The notes: a model not told the origin generated them from the letters alone. A stretch of DNA of 33,310 nucleotides from Fibrobacterales bacterium (GCA_051532035.1 JAOPTW010000024.1:1-33310); one strand, 5' to 3'. Shown: positions 3,170 to 30,573, numbered from the stretch's first letter. Numbers and translations are program-made.

Positions 3170-3241
3170 AATCAACGCTCGAAAACGGCAGTGGTGAATT
3201 CCATATATATGGGAATTCATTGATGCCTTTTCTTGTTGTAG
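3170..3241 (-). mobile_element. attC-like site (family A)
   Basis: + strand AATCAAC-GCTC-GAAAACGGCAGTGGTGAATTCC..GGGAATTCATTGATGCCTTTTC-TT-GTTGTAG: AAC...GTT box pair around an imperfect hairpin, 17 bp after the stop of ORF 3259..5262. Confidence 0.85.
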
Positions 3242-3258
3242 CTAGTTTTTCTACTAAA

Positions 3259-5262
3259 TCAAATTATCTCCTCAGACATTCGCCTTTCAACAATACTTTC
3301 TACCATAGCTTGGCGACTAATACTTTTTTTAGTAATCCATGGCTTAGATATTGTGAAAGATGTTATGAACCAAATAGTCACACTAACTGCCAAACCAATT
3401 ATATATGATTGAAAAACATCAGGCTTACCTAAAGAGTCAAGGTTTGAACTTCCATATAAGTAAATGCCTACAGCTGTTAACAACAGGAGCCCAATTGGTA
3501 TTAGGAAATACAAGAAAAGTTTATTTTTGAAAATTTGCCTGTCTATTTTCTCATATTCTTCATTTTCAAACTTAACTTTTATCGATTTTCTCAGTAAACC
3601 TATCTCATCTTTTTGTTTTGACAACTCATTATTGGCCAATTTTAAATCGTTCTTATTATCGTTTAGTTCATCCATTAATTTTAATTTTGAACCCTGAAAT
3701 TGTCTACTTAAATCAAGGCTAATTTCAGCTTCACTTTTCCCTATGCACCTGTTTCTATGAACAGATCTAGCAATATTTAAAAGTTCTTCATCGGGGAGTT
3801 GGTTAATTTGATGCTCAGTCTCTAGCATTTTAGAAAGATCTTCAATTTTAAATATATCTTTATCCGGAACTAAATTTGATCGTATCATTGTAGCAAATAA
3901 ACTTGAACAATCAGATGGATTTATATCCACTCCTCCAGAATCGAGGGCTAGCATGCTTATCAGAGTTTCAAGTCTAATCGCAAATGGCAAATCTTTTAAA
4001 TTAGGTTTTAACTTAGCGTATTCATTAATTGAGAAATCTTGAGTAAGTAAAAAACATTTTTCTTCATTTCGAATATACTCAGTTCCGGCAATTAAACCTG
4101 AATCGTGATTAAGTTGATTGGATGATTTTTCACGCTTAGATTTTTGTTTAAAAATGTCATTTAATTCAGCTTTTTTTTCTGCACTTTCTCTTGCTTCTTT
4201 AATTGTACGTTCTAAAGCTACATCAGTATCAAATACTTCTATTAAATGTTTGTCGTGGATATAATCAGGTACATCCAATACCTCATCAAAAAAGCGAACT
4301 AAATCATCTAAACTGGTACATTTTCTTGAAATTGCAGACTGAATATAATCATCATCTATTTCCTTGAAAACGTCAAAGGAGTATTTTTCAAACAAATTTA
4401 ACACAGTCCCCCTCTTTGCCGATATTGCATTTACATATTCATCTCGGGTTTGATAAAAATAACCAGCCTTAATATTTAAAAGAGAAAAAGTTATATCAAT
4501 CTTTTCAAATGATTCTGAGAATGAGCTGCCCTCTAAACCAATATTCATGAGAATATTTGTATCAAGTACACACTTAGAATTTGAAAATGCTTTTACTGAT
4601 AAATTATCAGCTCCTAATGATGAAGTTACTAATGTTGAAGCAAATGAAGACACTCCAAACTCCCAAAGATATGAATTTACATCAGGTTCATTTGTGGAAA
4701 TAAATGTAAGGAACTTTGATTTTAACTCATCAATATCTTCATTCAAAATCCTTGTATGTTTTCTTGAAGTAGATTTTATTAGATCTGCAATATTTGTATG
4801 GTTGCGTTTGATAATATTTGAGGTGGTATAACATAGGTCTGAAATCCAATCCGCAGTATATGAGTTGAAAAAACTAATTGATATACTTGTTAGCCAGTCT
4901 TTTATTGTTTCTTCGGAATAAGATATAGGACTAAAATATTTACTAATTATTCTTTTCGTACGTTCATCTGATTCATCAATAGCTTTTTTAATTTTTTTTA
5001 TTTTTGAGCTAGAGAGATAATAATCTTTTTTCTTCAGTTTTACATTGTTTTCTTTGACAAGGCCTTCAAGGACATTATTGATTTTACCTATACCCAATTT
5101 GGTTTTGAAAACATTATTAACTTTACTACGTAATTCATCTATCTTAAGGCGATTTCCTTCATTGTAAAGTATTTTAATAATTAATTGACCCAGTGAATTA
5201 TTAGCCAAAGATTGAGAGTTTGTATCTATTTGTAGATATAAAGACTTAAGGTCATTTTTCAT
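3259..5262 (-). CDS. Cassette gene: PIN-like domain protein with coiled coil and 2 C-terminal TM helices
   Basis: VLDTNILM, NHDSGLI and FLLTQDF motifs typical of the PIN fold; two hydrophobic segments near the C-terminus; flanked by attC sites; AGGAA RBS. Confidence 0.75.
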   Translation of the reverse strand: MKNDLKSLYLQIDTNSQSLANNSLGQLIIKILYNEGNRLKIDELRSKVNNVFKTKLGIGKINNVLEGLVKENNVKLKKKDYYLSSSKIKKIKKAIDESDERTKRIISKYFSPISYSEETIKDWLTSISISFFNSYTADWISDLCYTTSNIIKRNHTNIADLIKSTSRKHTRILNEDIDELKSKFLTFISTNEPDVNSYLWEFGVSSFASTLVTSSLGADNLSVKAFSNSKCVLDTNILMNIGLEGSSFSESFEKIDITFSLLNIKAGYFYQTRDEYVNAISAKRGTVLNLFEKYSFDVFKEIDDDYIQSAISRKCTSLDDLVRFFDEVLDVPDYIHDKHLIEVFDTDVALERTIKEARESAEKKAELNDIFKQKSKREKSSNQLNHDSGLIAGTEYIRNEEKCFLLTQDFSINEYAKLKPNLKDLPFAIRLETLISMLALDSGGVDINPSDCSSLFATMIRSNLVPDKDIFKIEDLSKMLETEHQINQLPDEELLNIARSVHRNRCIGKSEAEISLDLSRQFQGSKLKLMDELNDNKNDLKLANNELSKQKDEIGLLRKSIKVKFENEEYEKIDRQIFKNKLFLYFLIPIGLLLLTAVGIYLYGSSNLDSLGKPDVFQSYIIGLAVSVTIWFITSFTISKPWITKKSISRQAMVESIVERRMSEEII

Positions 5263-5283
5263 TTTTTAATTCCTAATTAACTT

Positions 5284-5356
5284 ATACAACGTTTGCGTAC
5301 CAGTATGCATTTATTCCCATCTTTAGGGGAATTATTGCATACTCACGCTGTTGTGT
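5284..5356 (-). mobile_element. attC-like site (family B)
   Basis: ATACAAC-GTTT-GCGT..AGTATGCATTTATTCCC..GGGGAATTATTGCATACT..ACGC-T-GTTGTGT hairpin; the minus strand ends ...CAAAC|GTT as in typical attC sites. Confidence 0.87.
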
Positions 5357-5434
5357 AAAGTAGCTGGGGGTTATTTAGAATTTTCATTTCTATTCTTTTC
5401 CGTGGTCTATTATTAAGGTCATTTACATTTAACA

Positions 5435-7096
5435 CTATGTAAGAGCTAATATTTTCGACCTATTTGTGTCCTGAATTAAATCAACCCTTTCTTTATATAA
5501 GGTACGTATAGCTTTCAATGCTACATCCAAAGACTTGTCCCTGTATTCAATCGCTTGTTCCCATGTTAAATCTTTTACACCATGTACTAGTTTACTTCGT
5601 ATATTATAGTATTCAACAACAAGCTTGTGTAAGGCACTTCTATCCTCCTCAGTTTTTCCTAATAATTTTGCTATGGAGATAGATATTCTAAAACTTAATT
5701 CGGCATTTCCACCAAATAAGTTTTCCCACGCAATAATAGTATCTATAAATCCATCAATAGGATCAATTCGGTTATTTATTGCGGATAGAATTCTTCGAAT
5801 GGCTAATCTTATTTTTTCATCTTTTGTTTTTCTCACTAAATTACACCACATTACCAATTCTTCTCTTTCTTCGTTAGCTTGAAGGATGTGGTGATTTACA
5901 GGTGACCTAGGATTTGAGTTCCATGACAGACTAGCACCATGACTAAATGGGTCAAATACCATAGTCCATGCGCGTGTTATACCAACAGGTGGAGTCCTAC
6001 TACACGCTAATGAAAAACATAACGACAAATTTTCAGTTAGTCTTTCTAATCTAGATCTTGCTTGATCTAATTCTTTTGGCCATTTCTCGTTTTGGTCTGT
6101 ACTATTGAAATTAATTTTATAAGAATAAGTAGATTCAAGAACAAAAGATAGCTGGTATTTTTTTCCGTTAATATTTGTAGTTGGTGACCTATTAGGAGCT
6201 AACTCTGACATCCCTTCAAAAGCTGGTCGTATAATCCCAAAGTCAGTTTCTATGTTTCCAATATCATCCATAGATAAATTGTTAAACCCTAAAAACACCG
6301 GTACTTCTACAACGCCTCCCTTGATACAATGTCGCATAGTAGAAATTGTATATTCTGCCGCATTAGCTAATTCTTCTAAGCTAAAATGACCCCTCATTCT
6401 CATTAATTCAAACGAATTTACTAAAATCATGGATGGTAGGGAAGCTAGCTGAAGACCGCCTCCTTGGCCAGTTGACGCTCTATAAGAGCCATATGTATCA
6501 ATATCATTTTCACCAACCTTATCAAATATTGAAGATATTATTTCATCTTCCATTAACTGTTTGCATAATAATTTGTATTCGGGGAGAGAGTAAATTGTAG
6601 TGCCAATGTTCCTATCTAGCTTATTAAAATAAGATCCATTATTTTTTACAACAATTAAGAACAATGGATATACCATGGAAGCGATTCTATTAATCAATTT
6701 AACTATAGGATCATGATTGTCATAAACCTCAATTTCCCCTCCCATTTGTTCATGCCAAAGATTAAAAAGATGTTTTCCATCAATAAAAATTTTTGGTAAT
6801 CTATGAAATACAGAGAAATCAACATCATTACTATCAATCCCTTGCATTCGCAATTCCCTACATATGTCAATAAACTGATCAAGAATGTTTATTTGGCATT
6901 TAGTAAGGGTGATTTTTGAGTTTAATATATCTTCTGCATTTTCCTCAGATACATTTAGAATATATGCAATTATTCTGTGCCCCATGCTTTTTATAAACAA
7001 TGGGATTTTTACTTCTTCCATAAGTCGTCCTTTAATCAGCTTCGTCAATAACCCCAATTTAAAAATTAATGCTAGTCTCAGGATTAAATTATCCAT
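5435..7096 (-). CDS. Cassette gene: HEPN-domain protein (ApeA-like HEPN)
   Basis: C-terminal IIAWENLFG..ELSFRISI..YYNIRSKLVHG (RxxxxH motif); probable start ATG at 7021 after AAAGGA. Confidence 0.8.
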   Translation of the reverse strand: MDNLILRLALIFKLGLLTKLIKGRLMEEVKIPLFIKSMGHRIIAYILNVSEENAEDILNSKITLTKCQINILDQFIDICRELRMQGIDSNDVDFSVFHRLPKIFIDGKHLFNLWHEQMGGEIEVYDNHDPIVKLINRIASMVYPLFLIVVKNNGSYFNKLDRNIGTTIYSLPEYKLLCKQLMEDEIISSIFDKVGENDIDTYGSYRASTGQGGGLQLASLPSMILVNSFELMRMRGHFSLEELANAAEYTISTMRHCIKGGVVEVPVFLGFNNLSMDDIGNIETDFGIIRPAFEGMSELAPNRSPTTNINGKKYQLSFVLESTYSYKINFNSTDQNEKWPKELDQARSRLERLTENLSLCFSLACSRTPPVGITRAWTMVFDPFSHGASLSWNSNPRSPVNHHILQANEEREELVMWCNLVRKTKDEKIRLAIRRILSAINNRIDPIDGFIDTIIAWENLFGGNAELSFRISISIAKLLGKTEEDRSALHKLVVEYYNIRSKLVHGVKDLTWEQAIEYRDKSLDVALKAIRTLYKERVDLIQDTNRSKILALT

Positions 7097-7135
7097 TCTA
7101 TTTTAGAAATGAATTTTCCTACCCCCAGTTATTTT

Positions 7136-7190
7136 ACACAACTATTTGTGTCAGCAAAAATGCATACTTATCCGCCATTCAATAAAAGGT
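7136..7190 (-). mobile_element. attI-like site copy 1
   Basis: Minus strand ..ATAAGTATGCATTTTTGCTGACACAAATA|GTTGTGTAAA; homology with the copies at 11439 and 25769 ends at GTT; downstream sequence is the inverted match of the R'' side of attC 5284-5356; no hairpin. Confidence 0.75.
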
Positions 7191-7385: not shown

Positions 7386-7430
7386 GATGATAAAAGAGGG
7401 AGAATAGGGTCCCCCCCTTCTTACAAAAAT

Positions 7431-7613
7431 CTATGTATTAAACCGCTCAATCTCCTCACGACACCCAACAGCAACCTCCCGCTGCCTCGCCCGTGCAACC
7501 GCATTATCCTCAAACACATCACCCACAATAACAATATTCTCATCGTTAGTTCTGTTAGCAGGCTCTGTATAATTAAACGACCCAAAGATAGTGACCGCAT
7601 CATTAATCGCCAT
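7431..7613 (-). pseudogene. Duplicated 3' fragment of the PLD gene (last 60 codons)
   Basis: MAINDAVTIFGSFNYTEPANRTNDENIV...IERFNT is nearly identical to the C-terminus of 11658..12698. Confidence 0.9.
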
Positions 7614-7794
7614 GAGTCTGTACTGACGTTTAACTAGGCCACTTTTTTTAATATGCAGGCATCAATATGCGCCCTATAATACGATTATTTTTATTGCAAA
7701 GAAACGTCAACTTTCCAGAAGTCGGGGGCTCATTAACATTGTCGTTGATCATTTTCTAGGTTTTATTGGGAAATCATTTACGGCTTATTTACAA

Positions 7795-8901
7795 ATGACT
7801 GACAAAGAGTGCGTATTACACATCACAAATGAAATATCCCTTGGCAAATTAGAATCTCAATCACAGCAATATTACAGAAAACATATTCTTTCCATATGGG
7901 CGGACTTTAAAAAAAACCTTTCAAAAAATCATAAATGTTTTTGGAAAGGATGCAATTCTATAAATACGATTTCAGCACATACCATTAGCAATGCAAATTG
8001 TATTCAAGGATTAGCTGATGACACTAATCACATTAGAACTCCAGCTTATCATATTTTCGATCCTGAGATTAAAATAAAGATCATCGGAATAAATAAGTCA
8101 TCTGTATTTCAGGGCTTTTGTGAAACACATGACAACTTGTTTCAGAATATTGATTCTGTTCACGACGTTCCTACGGAGGATCTTGCTAAGTTCCAACCAT
8201 ATAGGTCACTTTGTAAGGAAATATTTGATTATGAACATTATCTTCAATACTCTGAAAAAACTAATAGACACTGGAAAGAGCTCATTAACAATGAGGCCAA
8301 TATTAAATTACAAGAATATAGAAGACTAAATAATAGTGATTCAGTTAACTATATTCAATTTTTTGATGATAGCCACTTGTATCCTGAACAGCATAAGGCG
8401 AGCAATGATTATTTGCATCATTTAAATGACATTAAAGATAATATGGATAGATTTTACAGCGGTAAATTTGAAAGCCAACCCATGTTTAGAGGTGTGACGT
8501 TACCACTCTCGCTACCAGTAGCACTAAGTGGATGGACACAATACCAATTTGATGACAGTAATTCCATATTATTTTCATTGAATGTAATTCCATACGAAGA
8601 AAAAACATTTGTATTTATCACATCTTATAATGAAGAAGCAGAACGCTTTAAAGCAGTTGTAAACGAATGTTTTAAAAATCCTGTTCATACCATTGAATTC
8701 ATAGAACACTTTATGATAAGAGGTACAGATAATTGGTTTTTATCTCCAAGGCATTGGAACCAAATGACTGATGAAGAAAAAGTAGACTTACAAAAGAGCA
8801 TGCATTTCTCACCGCATTTCATTTATCATAAAAAAGAAATCGACCTATTCAAAATGGAAAAGAAAATCTTAAACAATGCTTCTTTCATAATGCCCACCTA
8901 G
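7795..8901 (+). CDS. Hypothetical protein with Zn-binding HNH-like N-terminal region
   Basis: C-x4-C...SAHTIS...FQGFCETHDNLF motif; 368-aa AT-rich ORF. Confidence 0.7.
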   Translation: MTDKECVLHITNEISLGKLESQSQQYYRKHILSIWADFKKNLSKNHKCFWKGCNSINTISAHTISNANCIQGLADDTNHIRTPAYHIFDPEIKIKIIGINKSSVFQGFCETHDNLFQNIDSVHDVPTEDLAKFQPYRSLCKEIFDYEHYLQYSEKTNRHWKELINNEANIKLQEYRRLNNSDSVNYIQFFDDSHLYPEQHKASNDYLHHLNDIKDNMDRFYSGKFESQPMFRGVTLPLSLPVALSGWTQYQFDDSNSILFSLNVIPYEEKTFVFITSYNEEAERFKAVVNECFKNPVHTIEFIEHFMIRGTDNWFLSPRHWNQMTDEEKVDLQKSMHFSPHFIYHKKEIDLFKMEKKILNNASFIMPT

Positions 8902-9061
8902 AACACCTTTGCAAACTAAGAATGAGCTGAGTCGTCCAATCAAAAAGCCGGGTCTCCTCAACCAAAATGTTTCCATATAAAAGTTATACATAAGGTCTAT
9001 CCAGTTCACAGATGTTCATTTACATTAGAAAGAACATAATGAGAGTTCTTAAAACTTTCAG

Positions 9062-10618
9062 TTGCTATATTATCATATTATATTGAAGGAATTAATCATG
9101 TTCGAACACAAAAAACAGTCTAATTCTCAAAAAATTGGTGATTTTGGTGAAGCCGATTTTATAAAATGGGCTACACGAAAGTCAATAAACCTTGCTAAAC
9201 CACTAACAGATTATGGATTTGATTTTCATGGTCATTTGATTGAAGATAACATTGTAACTGGTAAAATGATTAATGTGCAATGTAAATCGAATGAACAAAA
9301 TAAAAAAGATAAAACGTTTGTACTACATAGAAGTGACGCAACATTATACCTTGCTTCAAACCTACCTATATGCATTGCTGGGATGGATGTAGTAAATGAA
9401 GAAATTTTTGCATGGATTATAGATGAAGAACTAGTTAATATGTTGGTTAAGTTCCTAAAGACAACAAATGAAACTATAACTGTGCATTTTAGTCAATTGA
9501 ACCATGCTGACATTATAGCAGAAAAGATATCAGAAGCAACTAAATCTAGCTACATGTCATACATTAAGAACCTGTGCTTAGAACAGATTTGTGGCCCCAA
9601 TGTCTATGTTGAGTCTATGAATTGCGGCAAGTCTTCTCGCATAATATTTCACACAAATTTTTTAACCAACATAGTTAAACCAGAATCTTTATTTGGAAAA
9701 GACGATAACGAAAAACTAGAAGACATAATCAACATAAGTGTTTTAAGTGCACTTTCAGAGCTTAATATATCACATGATGAATTTCTAATTACAGGTGAAG
9801 TTGGTAGAACATTAGAAATTGGTGCTAAACCAGGCTCTCCCACAACAACTGTCTTAATGTACCCATCTGAAGGAAATACATGCTATAGATTTAAAAGTGG
9901 TATATGTATCTGGATCCGAGAGGTAATTAAAAAGAAAAGGAAGTACAGCCATAAAATTGAGGTTACCGCTGAGCATTCACCTTATAACATAGTTTCATGC
10001 TATGAAGATTTTTATGCATTGGAAATAATTATTGCAAGTGGTGAATTATATATAGATGGTAAAGATTATTCCAAAATACTAAATGCAGCCAAACTTCTTG
10101 CATGTTATTTTGAATATATGGAAACAGTTATACTTGCTCATGAAAAAGGAGTGATATCCTTTGAAGGGGTTGACTTAAAAAGCATTGAAACTAGAGGTGA
10201 TTTTATAACAATCGGAGTAATCTCTAAACTTATAACCACAGACAACATGAATAGCATTATACCAGGTATATATCTTACATATACTGAATCTGATAAAGAT
10301 TTTCATATTAATCACACAATCGGGGATGAATTAAAAAGAGCTATTATACCAATGCCATTTACAATTGCAGGCAAAAGTTACATTGGTAATATTACATGTA
10401 CATTTTATTTTGTTTACAATTCAACAAATGAAATTGTGGGTATGCAATTTGACAAAAGAGAAAAATTTGAAGTAAAAGAGGAAAATTCTATTGGAAAATA
10501 TGATTATCCAGAGCTTTGGACTTATAAAAATTGGCCTTCGTTTTCAATGACTTATGAGGCAAGCCATATTAGTGAAATTAAACCAGACAGGAAGCATTCA
10601 ATGATTATTATTGATTAA
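9062..10618 (+). CDS. DUF4365-like (PD-(D/E)XK nuclease) domain protein
   Basis: IGDFGE...DYGFDF...NVQCKS motif; probable start ATG 9098 after GAAGGA. Confidence 0.78.
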   Translation: MLYYHIILKELIMFEHKKQSNSQKIGDFGEADFIKWATRKSINLAKPLTDYGFDFHGHLIEDNIVTGKMINVQCKSNEQNKKDKTFVLHRSDATLYLASNLPICIAGMDVVNEEIFAWIIDEELVNMLVKFLKTTNETITVHFSQLNHADIIAEKISEATKSSYMSYIKNLCLEQICGPNVYVESMNCGKSSRIIFHTNFLTNIVKPESLFGKDDNEKLEDIINISVLSALSELNISHDEFLITGEVGRTLEIGAKPGSPTTTVLMYPSEGNTCYRFKSGICIWIREVIKKKRKYSHKIEVTAEHSPYNIVSCYEDFYALEIIIASGELYIDGKDYSKILNAAKLLACYFEYMETVILAHEKGVISFEGVDLKSIETRGDFITIGVISKLITTDNMNSIIPGIYLTYTESDKDFHINHTIGDELKRAIIPMPFTIAGKSYIGNITCTFYFVYNSTNEIVGMQFDKREKFEVKEENSIGKYDYPELWTYKNWPSFSMTYEASHISEIKPDRKHSMIIID

Positions 10619-11432: not shown

Positions 11433-11486
11433 TACCAACTATTTGTGCCAGCAAAACTGCATACTTCTCCACCATTCAATAAAAAT
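11433..11486 (-). mobile_element. attI-like site copy 2 (downstream of the intact PLD gene)
   Basis: Minus strand GGAGAAGTATGCAGTTTTGCTGGCACAAATA|GTTGGTA; homology with the other copies ends at GTT. Confidence 0.72.
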
Positions 11487-11657: not shown

Positions 11658-12698
11658 CTATGTATTAAACCGTTCAATCTCCCCACGACACGCAACAGCA
11701 ACCTCCCCCTGCCTCGCCCGTGCAACCGCATTATCCTCAAACACATCACCCACAATAACAATATTCTCATCGTTCGTTCTATTAGCAGGCTCCGTATAAT
11801 TAAACGATCCAAAGATAGTGACCGCATCATCAATAACCATAAGCTTGTGATGCAGCTTTCCAAGACCACCTTTGTTCCCTATAAGAGAAATAGAAATACC
11901 CGCCTCGGTGAGGTTATGAGTCGCTGCCCATTTTTGATTACCTTGAAGTCTATCGAGTACACCCGTTATCTGAACGCCTCGTTGCTGTGCTGCAATCAGT
12001 GCATCATCAATACCAGAACTTTGAGCAAAGGTAAAGACCGCAAAATCAATCCGCACCTGCGCCTTAAGAATCTGTTTCATAATCTCAAGCTCGGGTGTAT
12101 GATCTGGTGAGAAGAGTGCCCTAATACGAATCCTATCGACACTACTATTTACCGGAGAGACACTTTTCATAATACTCTCCCTGCCAAACCTACCTGATCG
12201 AATCTCATTAAACTCAATACGGAATTGATCTGAGATCGTCTTATTATGAATGACTATCACATGATTGAGGTTTTTAGTTACCCCGGTATCCGTAAAGTTC
12301 GTTGAACCCGTAAGTACTGAGTCTCCACAGATCATAAACTTCTGATGAAAGATGGCACTATTAAAATCAACCTTCACGTCGATGTCTGCTCTGCACAAGG
12401 CACTAAAGAGTTCTCTGTTTATCTCATGGCTTCCCGATGGTTCAAAAGGGGCTGCTTGTTTTCTTGAAGCAAGGAGGTAATTCTGCTCAAGAACTAAGTC
12501 AATGACTACTCCCCGACTGCGTGCCCGTATCAGAGCTTCGGTAATCTCTGTGTTATCAATCTCTTGAACGGCAACACAAAGGTTTTCTCTCGGCTTTGCA
12601 TCATCAATAAACCCGATGATTGGGTTTATTAATGAATCTGGGCCTCCCTGTTCTTTTGGACCTAAATACAGTTTAAAACTGCGTGCACTATAGCTCAT
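11658..12698 (-). CDS. Phospholipase D superfamily protein (two HKD motifs; nuclease/PLD-like)
   Basis: FHQKFMICGD..TGSTNFT and LHHKLMVIDD..FGSFNYT; start overlaps the upstream stop (TAATG). Confidence 0.92.
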   Translation of the reverse strand: MSYSARSFKLYLGPKEQGGPDSLINPIIGFIDDAKPRENLCVAVQEIDNTEITEALIRARSRGVVIDLVLEQNYLLASRKQAAPFEPSGSHEINRELFSALCRADIDVKVDFNSAIFHQKFMICGDSVLTGSTNFTDTGVTKNLNHVIVIHNKTISDQFRIEFNEIRSGRFGRESIMKSVSPVNSSVDRIRIRALFSPDHTPELEIMKQILKAQVRIDFAVFTFAQSSGIDDALIAAQQRGVQITGVLDRLQGNQKWAATHNLTEAGISISLIGNKGGLGKLHHKLMVIDDAVTIFGSFNYTEPANRTNDENIVIVGDVFEDNAVARARQGEVAVACRGEIERFNT

Positions 12699-19898: not shown

Positions 19899-19957
19899 AT
19901 ATAACGTCTTGAATTGAGCGGATCACTTGTGATACGGTCTCTAATGAATTGTTATAT
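19899..19957 (-). mobile_element. Canonical 59-bp attC site
   Basis: Minus strand ATATAAC-AATTCATTAGAGACCG..ATCAC-AA-GTGAT..CGCTCAATTCAAGAC-GTTATAT; perfect R''/R' boxes, ends resemble aadA-type 59-be (TAACAATTCATT.../...AATTCAAGCGTTA); contains the upstream ORF's stop. Confidence 0.92.
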
Positions 19958-21038
19958 CGTCAGCTTGGCCGATATATGTCATATATTCAACATCGCGGCA
20001 TATTTCTACCAAAGTCGAAAACTCAGTACCCACATTACCTTCATTACCTTGTCGCTGATTCCTATTATTGTAACAGTATTCTTTCAAAAATTCATTCTTG
20101 CAAGTGTCTTCAAAATTATAACAAGTACTAACATTGGGTCTAAGGTCTCTATATATTCTTCTACTTGAACATTTATCTCCTTTATATACATATTCTTTAA
20201 TCTCGGTAATTGCTGTATCACTAAGATCTATTGTTGTGGTAAAATCAATACCAAATGGCGATATAGTCCAGCTGTTACAGTTATTTTTTATAAATGAAGG
20301 CGGTCTTCTATCATTCGGTCTATAAATATCATCCACCCAACAATTAAATTCTTGCATATAGGTAGTCGTTAAAGAATTATCAGTAAATTTCGCGAATGTT
20401 GATCGCTTAACAGCACTAATTCCGTATGAAATGTGTGTAGCACCCCTATAGCATGATGGATTTAACGAATCTACTACCCCTCTTTCAAATTCTTTCCATA
20501 AACCAATTAGTGTATTGGATTCTCCTATATACCTATCGAAACCGCAATCACTGTAAGGGGAAAACAAATGAAACTCACCATAAACAAGACGATAACTCAA
20601 AGAATAATCTTCTACTAATGGGACAGTATCCAACTCACCATTTGTACATTGATAATATTCACTCTTCAGATTTACAATCGAATCATTATAACTAACGATT
20701 TCATGAATGTTTTTTTGGGAATAGGAATAATCATAAGTTCCATTTTCAAGAACGTAATTATACCGGTTGTAGGCTTCGGTATAATTGACTTGTGCCACAA
20801 AACATTCTGTAGATTTACAGTCACCTGAATCGTTTCTCTGGGCATTAAAATACTCATATTGCGCACCCCAGAAACCAATTTCTGCTTCATTAAGAGCAAT
20901 AACAGTATCTTGTGATGCTGCATTATTATCCGATTGATCATTATTAAAAAGGTCACAATTTAAAACAAGCAAAGAAGACAAAACAAAAAATGAAACACGT
21001 AAATATCGCATAAAATTCCATATTAGATAAATTGACAA
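19941..21038 (-). CDS. Cassette gene: Cys-rich lipoprotein (paralog of 26449..27774)
   Basis: Probable start ATG 21011; LLVLNC lipobox; shared Cys pattern with the 441-aa ORF; stop lies inside attC. Confidence 0.85.
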   Translation of the reverse strand: MSIYLIWNFMRYLRVSFFVLSSLLVLNCDLFNNDQSDNNAASQDTVIALNEAEIGFWGAQYEYFNAQRNDSGDCKSTECFVAQVNYTEAYNRYNYVLENGTYDYSYSQKNIHEIVSYNDSIVNLKSEYYQCTNGELDTVPLVEDYSLSYRLVYGEFHLFSPYSDCGFDRYIGESNTLIGLWKEFERGVVDSLNPSCYRGATHISYGISAVKRSTFAKFTDNSLTTTYMQEFNCWVDDIYRPNDRRPPSFIKNNCNSWTISPFGIDFTTTIDLSDTAITEIKEYVYKGDKCSSRRIYRDLRPNVSTCYNFEDTCKNEFLKEYCYNNRNQRQGNEGNVGTEFSTLVEICRDVEYMTYIGQADDITIH

Positions 21039-21170: not shown

Positions 21171-21256
21171 AAGAATATTCCAATCGTCAATCCAATCAAT
21201 ACGGCAGTTTATTCAGAAAAAGGGAGGGGACTAGAGCCAAAAGAAATCCCCCCCCC

Positions 21257-21543
21257 CCCTCACCGGATCACTCGGGCAAAAGCCACTCCCATACAAAAAT
21301 TTCAAGAACATGTCCAGAGGTGTACACAGAACCAGGCCTATCCAGCCCTCTGCCCCTTCGACCAGATTCTTCTTCATGATACTCCGCATAGCACATACTA
21401 TGCCCGGCATCGGCACGTTCCAGTGGTATTTTCTCTATATACTCCATAGAGCCGAGAACGTTGATTATTGCATTGGGGAAATCATCTTTGAATGATGTGC
21501 TATAGTCCTTTATGACTGATGCATGGTGGGTGAAGTGGATAAC
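21257..21543 (-). repeat. ~280-bp repeat copy C
   Basis: Homology ends at GATAAC 21538-21543. Confidence 0.95.
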
Positions 21544-21636
21544 CGCTCACTTGGACCTTACTCAACCAGTTGAAAAAACAGCACAGACTGAAACAGCATC
21601 ACCATCAGATGAGGATTCACGACCTGAGTAACCAAA

Positions 21637-21730: not shown

Positions 21731-24700
21731 TTAAATTTCTTCAACAACAACATTATCAATAACTACATCAGCACTAATAGCACCAAGGTTAAATACAATT
21801 CGAGCATTCATATCAGTTTGATTCATAGTAAATTCATAACTATATGTACTCATTGTTTCTGTAACAGAAGTCTGTGGAATAGAACCATAGTTTGTCCATG
21901 GTGACCCATCAGTTTCAAGGTGCGCACTAATAGTACGCGCCCATGCCGCGCGAGCATCAAAACTAAAACGGTATCTTTTTCCAGACTCTAACGGTATGTT
22001 TCCTTGTAAGAACTGTACATTCCAATCAGAAGTTCCTGCATTTGAAATATTGACACTACATTCATTAGAATTAACAGTAGTATAAGCACTTGCACCTTCA
22101 AAATTTTGAAGTGTCCAGTCATTCGATCCGTTTCCAAAATCACCATTGGTCACAAGATTAACGCTTGATACCTCATCATTGACGGTAATAGATGCAGTCG
22201 CTTCAAATCCACCATAAGTCATGGTCATAGTAAACGTTCCAACTTCAGTTGCATTAAAACTTGCGTATTTAAACCAGCCACCACCAGTGGTAGTAAAGCT
22301 CGGGAGCCCGATTGACATTGTATTACCAAATTGGTCATACCCTGTATAGCTCACCGATACACCACTGTTAATTGTAGTAACGATTGGGCTTACTGCAATC
22401 GAACTGAGCACTGGAGGTTCATCAGCTACTTCAACAACGATCACGTTATCGATAATAACATCAGCACTGCTCCCCCCAATATTAAATGCAATGCGCGCAT
22501 TCATATCAGTTTCACTCATAGTGAATTCTTGTGTGAATTTCTGCATTGATGTTGTTAGAGAAAAAGGCGAAGTATTTGAATAGTTAGTCCATGGTGAACC
22601 GTCTGTCTCAAGCTTAGCTTCAATGGTTCTATTTTGTACAGAACGAGCATCAAAACTAAAACGGTATTTTTTACCAGCTTCAAGAGGAATAGCTCCTTGA
22701 GTAATTTGTACACTCCATGCTGCAGAGCCCCCATCACTAATACCAGCATGTAACTGCTGTCCTGGCGCTCCGAGAGATGAAGTCCCACTACTTGCCCAGT
22801 TGGTTATGCCATTTGCAAAATCACCATTCAACACCATTGAGTATGCTGATCCATCATCTTCTACGGTAATGTTGGCTGTGGTAGAAAACTGTCCATAAGT
22901 CATTGTTACATTCCAGTTGCCCAATTCTTCTGCGTTAAATGTAGAACCAGTAACAGTACCTCCACCATTAACACTTAATACTGGCTGTGATAAAGCGATG
23001 ACATTGCCATCTTGATCATAGCCACGATAAGTAAAATCAGCAGATGTTCCCAACTGAATAGTCATATCATCAACTTCAACTGACGTCAAAGTAGGCGACG
23101 GTTCATTAGTAAGTTCAATAAGTGAAATATTATCCACATGAACGCTTGCGTTACTTCCACCAAGATTGAATACAATACGCGCATTTAAGTCAGTTTCATC
23201 TGCAACAAAATCATGTACATAGGTTCTTTTATTGTAATCAGTTTCAAAGGCTGTGGTTTTAGAATAATTAATCCATGGTGATCCATCTGTTTCAACTTTA
23301 ACTGATATAGTACGGCTACCACCAGAATATACTGTGAAAGCGAGACGATATTGCTTGCCACTCTCGATTGCCAGGTTACCCTGTCTAAACTGTATATTCC
23401 AGTCGTCAGTACCACCCTCTGTAATAGAAATTGAAGCACTGTAATTAATAATGCTCACATCCGCAACTGCTCCACCAGCATTACCCAGTTCCCATCCATC
23501 TGTTGATTGACTAAAATCTCCATTTACTATTTGTGAAGCAGGCAGTGCTACTGCAAAATCAAAACTCATGTTATCTGAGAGACTTGAAATATTGCTCAAA
23601 ACGAGATCGGAATAATCACCGTCCCACCAACGTGCTTCAGGCTGTGTTTTAGCAGAAAAACTACTGTTATTTGCAGCATAGAAAAAGTCTTCAGCTTCAC
23701 CGGAACTACGGTTGTTTTCTAAGTCATACTGGCCATCTGCTTGTACTACAGAGACTTTAAAATGCCTACTAGCCCAACGTTCATTATTACTGTTATTTCC
23801 ATATTCATCAACATGCCAAATAAGTACTCCTTCACCAGGCATAGTCGAATGGCGATTCTCTTGTTTACGCGCTTCAATATAGTAACGCTCTTGAGCCTCT
23901 GCTGCATTTTGATAAATAAAAATATCTGCATCATTATTTGCTTCAACAAAGTGAGTACCTTGGTTTGAAGCAGTCAAGATTTGTGGAGTAATCCACCCCT
24001 CTGAATGTCTAAAATACGGATTAGGATACTTAGGATTGAGATTTCCACTTGAAGACATGAGGTCAAAAGTACCAGTACCGCGTGAGTCAGAATCATAATC
24101 ATAGGTATCAGACCAGCTAAAAAGCATATGCCCATTCTCATGACAAAAAGTACCAAGTGTTAAATAACTACGCATATCCGTAACTTGATAATCCTTTGAA
24201 GATACCCCATTTGCAGTGAAGCCATATACCGTTGAACGGTGTGGCCATAAACCTTTACTCCAACCTGAACTACGATTCCCTGCATAATACAAGTTTATTG
24301 CATCAATGTAGGTATCATTGTCTGAATCAAATTGCGAGAATTCCATCCCCTCTACATCTCTCAGGTATTCAAGTGCTTCAAGAATAAGCTCACGTGCCTT
24401 AGGTCCTGCAGCTTCAGTGTAATTATCATAGTACGATTTTGGATGTATCGCTCTATAGTACGCCGTAACTACATTGGTGTAGTTTACATGACCATTTGAG
24501 ATCTCATAGAAAAAATCATTTACTGATCCATTGTTTCCATTCGCAGAATACCCTGACTGCTGTAAGAAATTACTGACTTCAGATGGTGAGATTGATCCCT
24601 CTTGATCACTAAAATCAACAAGTATCGTAAGACCGAGTACATTCCCCGAAAGTCCATCAGCCGATACCGCCATTTGAGTACCTGCATTTTGGGTCCCTAA

Positions 24701-25120
24701 CGAGCTGGCCGAAAACTCAAGAGTCTGTTCTTCTCTAGCGCGTCGTGCCTTTTGTCTACGAGATTTTTTCGAAAGCTTCAATCCCTTACGGATTACTTTG
24801 CCCTGTTTATTTTTTCGAACAGTAGTACGTTGTGCACGCATTTTGTTCGATTGATCAATATAACGTTCTTCAGTAGGTAAGAATTCACCACCATCTTCTG
24901 ATACGTCTGCGTATACAATCCAGCCATCCGAATCTCTTACCAGTGTATAGCCATCTAATGTTTCTACGCGTTGGTAAAATTCATCACCCCAAACCTTAAC
25001 CGGTACTACCGAACCATCTGGTTGTTTTAGGTTGAATGCTTCACCGTGTGAAGGAGCTGAATATGCCAGTATTGCTGTTAAAAATACTAAGCATAGCGCC
25101 TTTAATCCTAATTGTTTCAT
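21731..25120 (-). CDS. M6-family (immune inhibitor A-like) metalloprotease with three CBM4/9-like modules and Ig-like spacers
   Basis: Signal peptide; QPDG..WGDEF prodomain; LWPH, FCHENGH (HExxH), FDLMS, GVLIWHVDE; three NGDF...W..Q...GK.YR.SF...ARI.FN.G modules. Confidence 0.92.
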   Translation of the reverse strand: MKQLGLKALCLVFLTAILAYSAPSHGEAFNLKQPDGSVVPVKVWGDEFYQRVETLDGYTLVRDSDGWIVYADVSEDGGEFLPTEERYIDQSNKMRAQRTTVRKNKQGKVIRKGLKLSKKSRRQKARRAREEQTLEFSASSLGTQNAGTQMAVSADGLSGNVLGLTILVDFSDQEGSISPSEVSNFLQQSGYSANGNNGSVNDFFYEISNGHVNYTNVVTAYYRAIHPKSYYDNYTEAAGPKARELILEALEYLRDVEGMEFSQFDSDNDTYIDAINLYYAGNRSSGWSKGLWPHRSTVYGFTANGVSSKDYQVTDMRSYLTLGTFCHENGHMLFSWSDTYDYDSDSRGTGTFDLMSSSGNLNPKYPNPYFRHSEGWITPQILTASNQGTHFVEANNDADIFIYQNAAEAQERYYIEARKQENRHSTMPGEGVLIWHVDEYGNNSNNERWASRHFKVSVVQADGQYDLENNRSSGEAEDFFYAANNSSFSAKTQPEARWWDGDYSDLVLSNISSLSDNMSFDFAVALPASQIVNGDFSQSTDGWELGNAGGAVADVSIINYSASISITEGGTDDWNIQFRQGNLAIESGKQYRLAFTVYSGGSRTISVKVETDGSPWINYSKTTAFETDYNKRTYVHDFVADETDLNARIVFNLGGSNASVHVDNISLIELTNEPSPTLTSVEVDDMTIQLGTSADFTYRGYDQDGNVIALSQPVLSVNGGGTVTGSTFNAEELGNWNVTMTYGQFSTTANITVEDDGSAYSMVLNGDFANGITNWASSGTSSLGAPGQQLHAGISDGGSAAWSVQITQGAIPLEAGKKYRFSFDARSVQNRTIEAKLETDGSPWTNYSNTSPFSLTTSMQKFTQEFTMSETDMNARIAFNIGGSSADVIIDNVIVVEVADEPPVLSSIAVSPIVTTINSGVSVSYTGYDQFGNTMSIGLPSFTTTGGGWFKYASFNATEVGTFTMTMTYGGFEATASITVNDEVSSVNLVTNGDFGNGSNDWTLQNFEGASAYTTVNSNECSVNISNAGTSDWNVQFLQGNIPLESGKRYRFSFDARAAWARTISAHLETDGSPWTNYGSIPQTSVTETMSTYSYEFTMNQTDMNARIVFNLGAISADVVIDNVVVEEI

Positions 25121-25654: not shown

Positions 25655-25769
25655 TATAGTAATTTCACACCACCATGGACGGTGGCCCTTTGTACAAAAA
25701 TATTTTCTCCCCTGCATAACAATGCTGTCTCCCAAATAAACAACTTTGCCCATTCCTATATCCACCAAC
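25655..25769 (-). repeat. Orphan cassette leader (no cassette ORF follows)
   Basis: Homologous to 21045-21170 and inverted-homologous to 19259-19334. Confidence 0.7.
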
Positions 25770-25820
25770 TATATGTGTCAGCAAAACAACACCCTTCTTC
25801 ACCATTCAATAAAAAATCAG
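25763..25820 (-). mobile_element. attI-like site copy 4
   Basis: Minus strand GAAGGGTGTTGTTTTGCTGACACATATA|GTTGGTG; upstream flank homologous to 7143-7320. Confidence 0.72.
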
Positions 25821-25941: not shown

Positions 25942-26093
25942 TCACCCACAATAACAATATTCTCATCGTTAGTCCGGTTAGCAAGCTCCGTATAATTAAA
26001 CGACCCAAAGATGGCGACCGCATCATCAAGCACCATAAGCTTATGATGCAGTTTACCAAGACCACCTTTATTCCCTATAAGAGAAATAGAAAT
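25942..26093 (-). pseudogene. PLD gene fragment (second HKD region) with internal deletion
   Basis: Aligns to 11746-11897; joined to the attI flank at TCACCCACAA. Confidence 0.88.
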
Positions 26094-26448
26094 ATAGAGC
26101 AATTGAAAATCGATACTTCACACGGAGCAGTTTAATGAGTTTTGTAATTTTGATAATGGAGGCTCAATTGCCCCCAAAAGCTAGCATGGGTGTAGGCAAC
26201 AACCCTGTAAATACATAGTGCATGAATATTTTTTGTGAAATCAGCAAGAGTACCACTCTCAAAACGACATTGGAAAGCTTTGAGTTCCCTATAGCGATAA
26301 GTGAGCCAGGTCAGTTCAATAAACTGCAAATAAAATCCGGACAACATAAATGAATAATTCATGTGATTTACGCAAGATGGATTTCACCTTCAGCTCTTAA
26401 AGTTGGCAGAAGGTTAGAGTGAGGATGAAATGGAATAATATTTATAAG

Positions 26449-27916: not shown

Positions 27917-27989
27917 CACCAACGTTTGCAAAACGGCAGCTGTAAATCCCATCTTTAAGGGGATTAATTGATGCCTTTTGCTGTTGGGC
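27917..27989 (-). mobile_element. attC-like site (family A)
   Basis: CACCAAC-GTTT-GCAAAACGGCAG..AAATCCC..GGGGATT..TTGATGCCTTTTGC-T-GTTGGGC. Confidence 0.87.
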
Positions 27990-28098
27990 TCAGTAGGTGA
28001 TTATAGATGTTGTTTCACCTAAAAAATTTATTTACAACGGTTTAACCCGTAATTAGGACGATAGAGGGTGGGCACTTTAAATATTACACTTATTTTGA

Positions 28099-28722
28099 TT
28101 AAATATTCGTTGGATTAAAAGACACATTCATTATATCAACGTCTTCTTTATGTAACCCGTATTTTATTACAATATTTTTTAATTCATTATATATTCGATT
28201 ATATGGAACGACCATAAGCATCATCTTGTTATGAATTAAAATTGCGCCTTTCTCAGCAGCCATTAACTCCTGACCCAACATATCTGTTTTATATTTTTGC
28301 TCTAACCACCTATGTTCAGTAAGGTGTCCTTTAAAGTGCGCAGTGAATTCACCTTGTGTCCCATTGATCACATCAACTACATGCCAGTTCCAGTTACTTT
28401 TTGACCCTTCTAATGTTTGATTTAAAGATATCATTTTAATGACTGTTGCCCCCTTAGTAATAACCCAAAAATAAGAAGGCAGTGAAGTGGAAAAATTCCA
28501 GACGTCATCAACTGTTGGTGTTTTAGAGATAAATACTGAAGAATTTGGATTGTGAATATTGTTTAAAATTGTGTAATAATTTTGAGAAATAGAGTACCCT
28601 TCAAAATTTTCGACGTTAAATGAAATTGAATTAAATATAGGATTCCCATTTGAATCAGTTGTATTCCTATGTCCAGCGCACGAAACAAGAAGCATTAATA
28701 CTGCTAACAATAAAATTTTCAT
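28099..28722 (-). CDS. Cassette gene: hypothetical lipoprotein
   Basis: MKILLLAVLMLLVSC lipobox; AAGGA RBS. Confidence 0.88.
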   Translation of the reverse strand: MKILLLAVLMLLVSCAGHRNTTDSNGNPIFNSISFNVENFEGYSISQNYYTILNNIHNPNSSVFISKTPTVDDVWNFSTSLPSYFWVITKGATVIKMISLNQTLEGSKSNWNWHVVDVINGTQGEFTAHFKGHLTEHRWLEQKYKTDMLGQELMAAEKGAILIHNKMMLMVVPYNRIYNELKNIVIKYGLHKEDVDIMNVSFNPTNI

Positions 28723-28855
28723 ACAAGTCCTTGGTTATTATTTATGAATACTGACATAAAACCAAATATAGTAATTAGCGCCACTAGGACGGTGGCGCCA
28801 ACCGATGTAAAGAAATTTCTTCTATTTATCTATTCACTTTCCTATCACCTATTGG

Positions 28856-28915
28856 GCCCAACTACATAAGTACACAATATTGGCTACGTCTCTGGTAGAA
28901 ACACAGGTACTGAGT
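28856..28915 (-). mobile_element. attI-like site copy 5 (variant type)
   Basis: Minus strand AGAGACGTAGCCAATATTGTGTACTTATGTA|GTTGGGCCCAATAGGTGAT; downstream sequence is the inverted match of the R'' side at 27983. Confidence 0.7.
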
Positions 28916-28919
28916 ACTT

Positions 28920-29008
28920 CATTGACCACTCCCTAGGAGCGCACTGCAATCTCCCGCTCTCTCCAGTGCAATTGCATAACCCTCAAACACATCATCTACA
29001 ATGATACC
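28920..29008 (-). pseudogene. Degenerate PLD 3' fragment
   Basis: Nearly identical to 18605-18690; CCTCAAACACATCA shared with PLD. Confidence 0.72.
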
Positions 29009-29035
29009 GCCACATGAACCTCCAGCGCTAACCAA

Positions 29036-29298
29036 CCCTTACCGGATCACTCGGGCAAAAGCCACTCCCATACAAAAATTTCAAGAACATGTCCAGAGGT
29101 GTACACAGAACCAGGCCTATCCAGCTCTCTGTCCCTTCGACCAGATTCTTTTTCATGATACTCCGTATAGCACATACTATGCCTGGCATCGGCACGTTCC
29201 AGCTGTATGTTCTCTATATACAACATAGAGCCGAGGAAGTTGATTATTGCATGAGGAAAATCGTCTTTGAATGATGCGTGAAAGGTGAAGCGGGTAAC
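29036..29298 (-). repeat. ~280-bp repeat copy D (24-bp in-frame deletion)
   Basis: Begins at the attC crossover GTT; lacks 24 bp between two CATCA direct repeats. Confidence 0.95.
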
Positions 29299-29359
29299 GT
29301 AGTAGAGTTTGCAGTAATTCCCTATTAAAAGGAATTATTGCATGCTATGCGTGTTGAAA
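29292..29359 (-). mobile_element. attC-like site (family B)
   Basis: GGGTAAC-GTAGTAGAGTTTGCAGTAATTCC..GGAATTATTGCATGCT..GT-GTTGAAA. Confidence 0.85.
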
Positions 29360-29404
29360 GCAGTTGTCTTTGTATAGGTCTATGTGAAAAAAACTCACCC
29401 ATCA

Positions 29405-30460
29405 CTACCAAGCAAACATCTTCTCTCTATCATACTTAACATCTGCGGGTGAATCTATAATATTATAAATATCTTTGATAGTTATATTTCCCACAAAAGA
29501 CACTTGACCGAAAAACGAATCTCGCAGTGAAGTATGCTGAAGATTATAAAACGCATCTACTTCAACCCCCAAATACCTAGTTAACTGCCAATAAACACCA
29601 CCTCCAAGGCTATTAATAACTCCATTTGTAGGCAGATCTTCATATTGATAACTAATTGAATAATACGGCTTATATAGCGTAAATTTTGATTCAAAAATAT
29701 TATTTACAAATCCTCTTATTATGAATCGTTCTATAATATGTAGCAAGCTTATTTCAAAATACACTTTGGGAATATAATCAGGCAAAAAGTAGTTTGGAAC
29801 TACAATTCTATAATCACCAACCCCTTTATAAATCCTAGATGAATACAATATGTCCCTATACCCATAATCATTCATCATTCTTTTTGTAACCCTTCTTTTA
29901 GATACTTTCAGAGAAGTTGAAACAATTGTTTTATTTTTCATATCTATAATCAAGCTATCATTGAGTTGCCGAGGTTTTAGCATTGAATCATATGTTCGGG
30001 TACCGTGAGGAATATAAATATCCCCCCCTGATACCACCGAGGCTACTAAAGCTAAAGATATGATAGCTATATCTATTTTTTGTTTTCTTTGACTCAGCTT
30101 TTTTATACTATCACTCACCGTATTAAATATTACTGGATCAAGAGCAACAGTTGTCTTTGTATAGATTCTTAATGTATCGGCAAGATTGCGGAGTTCTCTA
30201 GGAATAAATATTTCATCATTATACATATATGACACTACTGATGTATTCATAAAGTCAACGACACTTTCCGCGTCAAATATTTCTATACCAGTTGTATCAA
30301 TTTTTGAATCAATATATATTGCTTTTTCATTTGTAATATATTTAGGTTGAGCATAAGGTGATTCAAGTTTTAAAACCTCATAGTTAACAGATATTGACTT
30401 AGGGAATACCAAATAACTAACCAACAAAATAAGAGCAATTATGTTTTTCATTTTAATCAT
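29405..30460 (-). CDS. Cassette gene: hypothetical secreted/membrane protein
   Basis: Signal peptide, internal hydrophobic segment, beta-strand-like C-terminus; lies between two attC sites. Confidence 0.8.
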   Translation of the reverse strand: MIKMKNIIALILLVSYLVFPKSISVNYEVLKLESPYAQPKYITNEKAIYIDSKIDTTGIEIFDAESVVDFMNTSVVSYMYNDEIFIPRELRNLADTLRIYTKTTVALDPVIFNTVSDSIKKLSQRKQKIDIAIISLALVASVVSGGDIYIPHGTRTYDSMLKPRQLNDSLIIDMKNKTIVSTSLKVSKRRVTKRMMNDYGYRDILYSSRIYKGVGDYRIVVPNYFLPDYIPKVYFEISLLHIIERFIIRGFVNNIFESKFTLYKPYYSISYQYEDLPTNGVINSLGGGVYWQLTRYLGVEVDAFYNLQHTSLRDSFFGQVSFVGNITIKDIYNIIDSPADVKYDREKMFAW

Positions 30461-30506
30461 TTATTAAAGAGTTCATAAAATATAACTACTGCTGACTGGT
30501 AATTGC

Positions 30507-30573
30507 TTTTAACGTAGCAAAGCTTGCAGTAATTCCCCCTTAAAAGGAATTATTGCATGCTAGCGTATTGAGC
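30507..30573 (-). mobile_element. attC-like site (family B) with mutated R'' box
   Basis: Near-identical to 29292-29359, but ATTGAGC replaces GTT on the + strand. Confidence 0.8.

Follow-up and report, generated by a model that had tools for sequence, protein, structure and literature searches.

Contig C24 of the genome of an uncultured Fibrobacterales bacterium, referred to here as G000, raises a question of identity: eight short hairpin elements bounded by AAC and GTT are interleaved along it with genes, and it has to be asked whether these are recombination sites of the integron type (attC), with the intervening genes as mobile cassettes, and which recombinase would serve them. The window analysed is this whole contig (33,310 nt), part of an assembly of 5.25 Mb in 130 contigs that is 91.75% complete, and the main comparison is with G001, a sister genome of the same genus. 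We consider it probable, with good confidence, that the interior of the window is a hypervariable locus of integron-type gene cassettes with variant sites. The sites, their structure, their split outer arms, the turnover of the locus in the sister genome and the presence of recombinase genes elsewhere in the genome are observed directly; recombination on a single strand and its enzyme, which may be IntI or a XerA-like protein, we infer.

Site calls were based on three covariance models of our own and not on the attC model of IntegronFinder. The first (R1) was seeded with five G000 sites, the second (R2) was built from 12 G000 sites aligned to R1 and run over the window with filters off, and the third (R3) is a canonical bottom-strand attC model of 10 sites located beside IntI genes in proteobacterial records (drawn from loci L051, L069 and L071, plus one from L053). 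The L-numbered integron loci come from many phyla and were retrieved with the G000 IntI protein as query. All eight elements listed by the original prediction are present where it placed them, and they comprise six strong members of a 70-nt family, one decayed member and one canonical short attC:

3170-3242, plus strand: 70-nt-type site, R2 73.5 bits, fold -13.2 kcal/mol (z -4.4)
5284-5357, plus strand: 70-nt-type site, R2 60.9 bits
16554-16627, plus strand: 70-nt-type site, R2 74.7 bits
19187-19266, plus strand: decayed 70-nt-type site, R2 20.3 bits (window E 0.004), fold z -0.8
19899-19957, plus strand: canonical short attC, R3 23.2 bits, E 3e-4, bottom-strand geometry on the plus strand
27917-27990, plus strand: 70-nt-type site, R2 84.6 bits, followed by the right-flank module Y (27991-28098)
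29292-29360, plus strand: 70-nt-type site of subfamily B, R2 58.8 bits
30507-30574, plus strand: 70-nt-type site of subfamily B, R2 59.2 bits, right triplet ATT and not GTT

The six strong sites, all on the plus strand, span 58.8-84.6 bits with R2, scores that are partly set by construction, since these sites are among the R2 training sequences. Independent support from the same model is given by nine further strong sites elsewhere in G000 and by 35 matches in G001. Genome-wide, R2 identifies 15 strong sites in G000, six of which are concentrated in this 33-kb contig. The decayed site at 19187 has intact relatives at C3:19436, C11:136480 and C42:15756. At 19899, where the attC overlaps the stop codon of an open reading frame (ORF) at 19941-21038, no R2 match is listed at E up to 5. 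The minus-strand ends AC·GTT or GC·GTT were correctly described (here and below, the dot stands at the junction), with the ATT of site 30507 as the exception in the triplet. When sites are grouped by the 4-kb rule of Cury 2016 (two or more attC no farther than 4 kb from one another, with no intI in the vicinity), three clusters result: 3170/5284, 16554/19187/19899 and 27917/29292/30507. Over the whole window Rfam yielded no matches, either at gathering score or at E up to 10; on small stretches only chance hairpin families appeared, such as miRNA precursors. A generic scan for AAC...GTT hairpins was discarded as a counting tool, as it returned 190 hits against 253 in the reversed-sequence control of the same 0.93 Mb; since the bare motif is unspecific genome-wide, the case rests on the family model.

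That the family forms a hairpin is supported by covariation. In the 12-site alignment, which gives a consensus of about 70 nt (YAACG...TGTTG, with boxes that are mostly CAAC/GTTG), both partners have changed in 19 of 26 pairs, and the share of paired cells is 88.6%, which drops to 71.6% after shuffling (none of 500 shuffles got as high) and to 33-52% once the partners are slid; the AAC and GTT triplets are kept in 11 of the 12 sites. The plus strand folds better than the minus strand at all eight window sites, with shuffle z values of -3.2 to -6.4 for six of them, -2.8 for 19899 and -0.8 for 19187. Over a larger set, the plus strand is the more stable one at 37 of 40 sites, by 3.3 kcal/mol on average, and contains 2.5 G:T pairs per site, against 0.1 on the minus strand. 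This agrees with the proposal that the plus strand is the folded bottom strand, and it matches the bias given in Nivina 2016, where the bottom strand has an advantage of 2.12 kcal/mol and 1.24 G:T pairs against 0.39. Three G001 members of the family (C100:6860-7045, C89:7851-8036 and C89:10746-10928) reach 183-186 nt owing to a large insertion at the hairpin tip, so that, as in attC, it is the terminal structure that varies in length.

Intergenic hairpins just past stop codons, some of them with repeated flank modules, could also be intrinsic terminators, repetitive extragenic palindromic (REP)-like repeats or miniature inverted-repeat transposable elements (MITEs), and not recombination sites. 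Against this, the better-folding strand is antisense to the genes, which leaves the mRNA with the weaker hairpin; no Y1/RAYT transposase was found in the genome (91.75% complete). Further evidence against such elements comes from the cassette ends and from the comparison with the sister genome.

In the mechanism proposed for the cassette locus, the interior (approximately 2158-33033) would be a chromosomal locus that takes up cassettes in circular form, through site-specific recombination within a folded hairpin of single-stranded DNA, in an integron-like manner. The plus strand would fold as the bottom strand, the crossover would take place in its 5' AAC and each gene would point to its own site, such that a linear cassette would read hairpin core, GTT, outer arm, minus-strand gene or genes, complementary outer arm and AA. 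The ends were compared by matching the 4 nt after the GTT of one site with the 4 nt before the AAC of the next, for all neighbouring 70-nt sites of G000 and G001 separated by less than 4 kb. Complete complementarity (4/4) was found in 15 of 27 adjacent pairs and at least three complementary positions in 22 of 27, while an outward helix of at least 8 nt was present in 16 of 27 (median 13 nt). The controls gave 4 of 39 within one site and 10.7% of 1455 non-adjacent combinations, and in an earlier count of this test none of 10000 permutations reached the observed mean. Complementarity of this kind between adjacent sites is the signature to be expected when cassettes enter as circles and the recombination takes place within the hairpin. 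Within the window, the ends of the cassette with the ORF 29405-30460 (GAAA/TTTT) pair at 4/4 positions and extend into an outward helix of 13 nt, and those of the cassette with the ORF 3259-5262 (GTAG/ATAC) pair at 3/4. The inverted repeats that thus flank cassettes are transposon-like, but they are cassette-specific and always meet at AAC/GTT next to the core, as the halves of a split hairpin do and a terminal-repeat family does not.

Circular-cassette insertion through a crossover inside the hairpin predicts orphan partner half-sites, and four were found, consisting of an outer arm plus AAC without a core. They are the reverse complements of the right flanks of sites 5284, 16554, 19187 and 27917, and each ends in AAC. 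They are listed together with the junctions associated with array ends:

7121-7142, plus strand: orphan half-site, partner of 5284, score 17, 0/100 shuffles
18526-18546, plus strand: orphan half-site, partner of 16554, score 16, 0/100 shuffles, then TA and a PLD 3' fragment (18566-18689)
25747-25769, plus strand: orphan half-site, partner of 19187 (anti-X arm plus CACC-AAC), score 15, 0/100 shuffles
28844-28862, plus strand: orphan half-site, partner of 27917, score 14, 0/100 shuffles, then TA, a PLD fragment (28883-29006) and the repeat D1
7139-7155, plus strand: 17-nt junction motif, copy 1, exact match, with TA after half-site 7121-7142, at an array end
11436-11452, minus strand: junction motif, copy 2, one mismatch, downstream of the intact PLD gene, reading ...TACC-AAC·TATTTG on the plus strand
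within 25747-25782, plus strand: junction motif, copy 3, one mismatch, after half-site 25747-25769 and TA
33027-33035, unstranded: possible junction ACTC-AAC·TA, 3/4 match to prediction

The window accordingly divides into five or six short co-oriented arrays, each closed by an AAC·TA junction, which would be attI-like; several short arrays and not a single one had been proposed for the locus, and this holds. Where a junction carries the 17-nt motif (three cases), it is found downstream of either the PLD gene or one of the gene's truncated 3' copies. At up to one mismatch, the motif has four copies in G000, three at window array ends and one beside the gene of a XerA-like recombinase, and the reversed-pattern control has none. 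Two modules of about 100 nt, X (19267-19390) and Y (27991-28098, also 30575-30686), are located between stop codon and site, and Y occurs on C28 and C42 as well; they pair with an inverted copy at the far cassette end and so probably represent halves of the outer stem in a much longer hairpin.

Placing the crossover in the left AAC of the plus strand relies, apart from stability, on sequence comparisons of four kinds, which are consistent with this position. Genes point toward the sites, as they do in L045, an integron in a Fibrobacterales metagenome-assembled genome (MAG). The canonical attC at 19899 and its homologue in G001:C3 have the same orientation as the 70-nt sites. One G001 cassette occurs in two copies (C100:10391 and C89:8314) with the same core and right flank but different left flanks and next cores. 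Finally, sites flanked by the repeat D1 share their left flank up to the AAC and have unrelated cores.

The comparison with the sister genome shows how much of the locus is variable. In the syntenic contig G001:C115, only window positions 1-2158 (94% identity) and 33039-33310 (96%) are kept, and an interior of 30.9 kb in the window corresponds to 19.1 kb in G001, with only repeat modules and one 326-nt piece in common. The GH5 gene on the right, the M6 peptidase gene and the PLD gene had been taken for backbone separating the arrays; since the interior is not kept in G001:C115, they belong to the variable content, and the backbone is confined to the two flanks. The 35 G001 sites stand in co-oriented arrays with a spacing of 0.35-3 kb. 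A segment of 1.9 kb with 92.6% identity (G001:C103:5208-7117 and G000:C28:13616-15516) is flanked by two sites, as a cassette, in one genome and is site-less in the other, which might reflect the birth or decay of a cassette. It was rejected as a clean cassette gain or loss between G000 and G001, as it breaks off some 30 nt and some 70 nt away from the sites and not at the sites themselves. Just one sequencing run contains the stretch, in the form of contigs, and this run may be the source of the DNA itself; its joints were set aside as evidence of excision, since with short sides or low depth, and fitting repeats at other loci, they are uninformative on this point. A complete turnover of gene content between sister genomes argues, together with the cassette-specific ends, against terminators, REP-like repeats or MITEs, which we regard as very improbable.

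The sites themselves differ from known attC in the arm that bears the unpaired bases. According to Nivina 2016, canonical sites have their extrahelical bases close to L'', in the 3' arm of the bottom strand. The classical arrays of loci L051, L069 and L071, located upstream of and divergent from intI, conform to this: their bottom strand, which runs in the direction of intI, has a bulged G and a T in its 3' arm. The same feature is found in 19899 and in 116-nt sites and is missing from the 70-nt family. Seven of the eight window sites (one of them decayed) are members of a non-canonical family and 19899 is a canonical attC. In the mechanism outlined above, the seven would represent a genus-specific family with its unpaired bases on the opposite arm. 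The attC-type architecture and cassette layout originally proposed are supported by the hairpin, the AAC/GTT triplets, the bottom-strand bias and the split cassette ends, and the non-canonical character of seven sites had been overlooked. Scoring with an attC covariance model, suggested at the time, succeeded for 19899 with our own R3 and placed no 70-nt site among the R3 matches listed.

Although the contig lacks an integrase gene, the genome does not. An IntI gene is located at C27:7927-9015 (locus L001:1471-2559), with 288 bits for TIGR02249 (cut-off 265) in one stretch that matches only profile positions 85-313. The description of the system as integrase-less thus applies to the contig only. 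As none of the five tyrosine recombinase genes of G000 is on C24, the clusters of the window are by definition of the type known as clusters of attC sites lacking an integron integrase (CALINs), a status correctly assigned, and they would be served in trans. No site was found within C27:1-20000 around intI (R1 and R2, filters off; maximum 13.6 bits), and the locus does not qualify as a complete integron. In G001, the IntI encoded on C108 is full-length (372.6 bits). Among 41 searched genomes of the order, IntI is present in three (G000, G001 and G002), and in none of 35 of family f4. In L045, a textbook integron of the nearest relative, intI is on the plus strand and a 116-nt site comes after each of three ORFs on the minus strand; R3 finds these sites beside intI, and the plus strand is the bottom strand. 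Its cassettes have split ends as well (ATGT after the GTT of site 1, ACAT before the AAC of site 2), and the predicted orphan ACAT-AAC was found at 1303-1309, between the last cassette and intI. Across 29 IntI loci of other phyla, R2 gave no matches with default filters at E up to 1, and with filters off a best value of 11.9 bits in four loci. G000 also contains, at C44:1006-2731 (locus L154) and far from intI in the assembly, four canonical 116-nt attC, recognised by R3 and spaced by 430-640 nt, a classical array of small cassettes.

Several observations weigh against the interpretation of the window as an integron-type cassette locus. The unpaired bases of the 70-nt sites (a 3-nt spacer and a bulged C) are on the 5' arm of the plus strand in nine of the 12 aligned sites, which is the mirror of the canonical placement and is not explained away by refolding; by the criterion of the bulge arm alone, the minus strand looks like the bottom strand. 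R3 lists 16 matches at E up to 10, and none of them, on either strand, is a 70-nt site. One R2 training sequence, C65:567, is devoid of AAC/GTT and may not be a site. Within the window, only one of five adjacent site pairs is complementary at 4/4 positions (29292 to 30507), the right-flank modules X and Y are combined with cores of several families and the 1.9-kb segment shared by C103 and C28 shows no break at the R box. Lastly, no 70-nt site is located beside IntI in G000 or G001, and the G000 IntI is missing about 80 residues in frame, corresponding to residues 142-219 of the 454-aa L045 protein, in the N-terminal core-binding region; its two remaining parts are 77% and 86% identical to that protein. 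The mirror shape of the sites, together with an IntI that is encoded elsewhere and apparently damaged, means that a second recombinase may move the cassettes.

A candidate is encoded at G000:C3:16979-18091, with an orthologue on G001:C46 (56% identity). This 370-aa protein scores 235.8 bits for NF040815 (XerA; cut-off 220), and its match to TIGR02249 is split into two stretches that skip profile positions 180-237, leaving it without the IntI-specific domain. Among 61 genomes (G000 and 60 others of the order), close homologues were found only in G000 and G001, the rest being 32-34% identical. In both genomes, the gene is divergent from variable ORFs followed by 70-nt sites (G000:C3:16979-19515 and G001:C46:14354-18954), and the orphan half-site that the neighbouring site predicts is present, with a module-length outer arm and an attI-like junction, 155 nt (G000) or 186 nt (G001) from the gene start. 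The 17-nt motif of the window junctions is also found beside the G000 gene. In G001 the motif beside the recombinase gene is a different one, and the G000-type motif sits in the syntenic array instead, so a clean co-variation of junction motif and recombinase across the two genomes was discarded. Thirteen metagenome loci with relatives of 32-49% identity show no arrays, most of these contigs being short, and R2 over 15 such loci gave weak single matches only.

The cassettes may be moved by IntI or by this XerA-like protein, and the evidence is divided between them. If IntI were the enzyme, the window would hold ordinary CALINs of a classical integron, split off by rearrangement or by insertion at secondary sites and now immobile owing to the damage to IntI, an account we hold as a possibility short of an even chance. 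IntI is present in both site-bearing genomes, canonical attC occur within the same arrays, and the AAC/GTT triplets and bottom-strand bias are those of known attC; in addition, Cury 2016 names among the origins of CALINs both rearrangement and insertion at secondary sites, and half of the CALINs it describes lie in replicons encoding IntI. Such an account has to contend, however, with mirror bulges and the failure of the canonical model on 70-nt sites, with arrays beside IntI that lack 70-nt sites, and with window junctions of the form AAC·TA where L045 has AAC·TC on the IntI side. Moreover, the canonical sites in 70-nt arrays are poorly complementary to their 70-nt neighbours (1/4 and 2/4 positions), and G002 encodes IntI yet contains a single weak R2 match.

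Equally tentative is the alternative in which a XerA-like enzyme runs a second system that uses the 70-nt sites, with the TAG·TTG junction as attI, and IntI serves only canonical attC of 116 or 58 nt. The divergent position of its gene at the head of variable plus-strand ORFs with 70-nt sites in both genomes, the orphan half-sites close to its start, the four motif copies in G000 (one beside the gene, none in the control) and the restriction of close homologues to G000 and G001 all favour it, as do the NF040815 score with the split TIGR02249 match, a mirror site geometry that argues against canonical IntI binding and the fact that all L045 cassettes beside IntI are of the 116-nt type. Nevertheless, each genome has only one locus of this kind and G000 and G001 are related, the motif beside the recombinase differs in G001, the 13 metagenome loci of relatives, on mostly short contigs, show no arrays, and R2 over 15 such loci gave no more than weak single matches. 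We know of no recombinase without the IntI domain that recombines folded single strands in this manner, which counts against it too. Extended to the whole genus, this becomes a picture of two parallel systems, which we put forward only with doubt: IntI with canonical attC on one side and, on the other, a XerA-type recombinase without the IntI domain that would insert at TAG·TTG and use mirror sites and far-split stems, the window being the genome's largest accumulation of arrays of the second.

The genes of the window and its conserved flanks are as follows:

1-2158, unstranded: conserved left flank, 94% identity to G001:C115
288-1811, minus strand: GH5 cellulase gene in the left flank (Pfam Cellulase, 140 bits)
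2249-3142, minus strand: 297-aa ORF of no family, left of the first site
3259-5262, minus strand: single-ORF cassette, 667 aa, no family, stop 17 nt from the site end at 3242 and start 22 nt from 5284
5435-7096, minus strand: cassette ORF, 553 aa, no family, between site 5284 and half-site 7121-7142
11658-12698, minus strand: intact PLD-family gene with two PLDc_2 stretches (Pfam PLDc_2, 145.7 bits; PADLOC DrmC-like, 50 bits)
19391-19870, minus strand: cassette ORF, 159 aa, lipoprotein-like N-terminus
21731-25120, minus strand: M6-family metalloprotease gene (TIGR03296, 164 bits against a cut-off of 110.8) with three CBM_4_9 modules (Pfam)
28099-28722, minus strand: cassette ORF, 207 aa, lipoprotein-like, between site 27917 and half-site 28844-28862
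29405-30460, minus strand: single-ORF cassette, 351 aa
30687-32585, minus strand: GH5-fn3 gene of the variable region (Pfam)
33039-33310, unstranded: conserved right flank, 3' end of a LuxR-type response regulator gene (NCBIfam), 96% identity to G001:C115

The cassettes are of unusually large size and nearly all lack annotation, and many encode secreted proteins or lipoproteins. The M6 gene lies within the segment bounded by site 19187 and half-site 25747-25769, and its best G001 match (70%) is at another locus. The GH5-fn3 gene is absent from the syntenic G001 contig, with a best match of 67% elsewhere in that genome, and the closest G001 copy of the intact PLD gene (82%) is found at a different locus, beside an array. 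Among 16 ORFs submitted to PADLOC, only the PLD gene (DrmC-like) and, weakly, a DUF4365 protein were matched. The latter belongs to a stretch of 29-33% GC (7795-10618) between a PLD fragment and motif copy 2, with two plus-strand genes coding for proteins of 368 aa (no family) and 518 aa (DUF4365 N-terminal domain, weak PADLOC match), near which no recognisable site was found.

Two repeats accompany the arrays. The 3' end of the PLD gene recurs in five truncated copies (7415-7671, 18566-18727, 25942-26094, 28883-29006 and 32923-33081), each by an array-end junction, and the copy at 7415-7671, on the minus strand, carries the terminator of the gene. Further PLD copies are present on C13, C23, C44, C7 and C89. 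The truncation points vary from copy to copy, and the fragments were for this reason rejected as att repeats of tandem integrative islands. The repeat D1, of 300 nt, has four copies in the window (16267-16566, 18761-19060, 21250-21549 and 29029-29328) and more on C65, C9, C13 and C42. It is located between a PLD fragment and the next site, and in two of its copies the repeat continues into the left AAC of a site; only one copy has an open frame (119 aa, 18779-19138), with no family match.

Compared with CALINs and sedentary chromosomal arrays, such as those of Vibrio (Cury 2016), the window shares co-oriented and mostly single unannotated ORFs followed by an imperfect AAC/GTT hairpin, a host-specific family of similar sites, a G:T-stabilised bottom strand, split R-box halves, an IntI encoded elsewhere in the genome and a gene content that differs among close relatives. 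Cury 2016, which defines CALIN and In0, already describes dispersed CALINs, and the novelty once attributed to the scattered arrangement does not hold. The window is set apart by unpaired bases on the R'-L' arm and not near L'', by end complementarity that goes well past the 7-nt R box and reaches 25 nt or more, by several tandem arrays that each have an attI-like junction of their own by a PLD fragment, and by 70-nt sites that fail the canonical model (R3). The L045 integron belongs to the same genus-level lineage and shows the same arrangement: its recombinase gene and its minus-strand cassette ORFs diverge, the junction is some 190 nt away from the start of that gene, and the R boxes are split. 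Its sites, however, measure 116 nt, with TAAC/GTTA boxes and an extrahelical G and T in the 3' arm, and are recognised by the canonical model, whereas the 70-nt family has mostly CAAC/GTTG boxes and the mirror asymmetry. The candidate enzyme resembles the Xer recombinases (XerA, XerC and XerD) in exceeding the NF040815 cut-off and in lacking the IntI-specific insertion. Xer sites (dif-like) are short double-stranded sequences of about 28 bp, not hairpins of 70 nt or more in arrays; the candidate also differs by an N-terminal extension of about 100 residues and by its position at the head of a variable gene array. None of the papers listed by a literature search for integrons in Fibrobacter deals with integrons in this phylum, although supplements of surveys, which were outside the search, may list such genomes.

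These are real integron-type cassette arrays with a new variant of site, on a contig without an integrase in a genome that encodes one, and they extend integron-type gene capture to the Fibrobacterales, with glycoside hydrolase and protease genes among the variable part. Integron recombination is thought to need one enzyme family (IntI) and one site geometry, in which the arm with the extrahelical bases sets strand choice and cassette orientation. Natural sites that show clear cassette behaviour with a mirrored asymmetry, one array of which is headed by a candidate recombinase other than IntI, make the features required of the folded site and of its recombinase testable.

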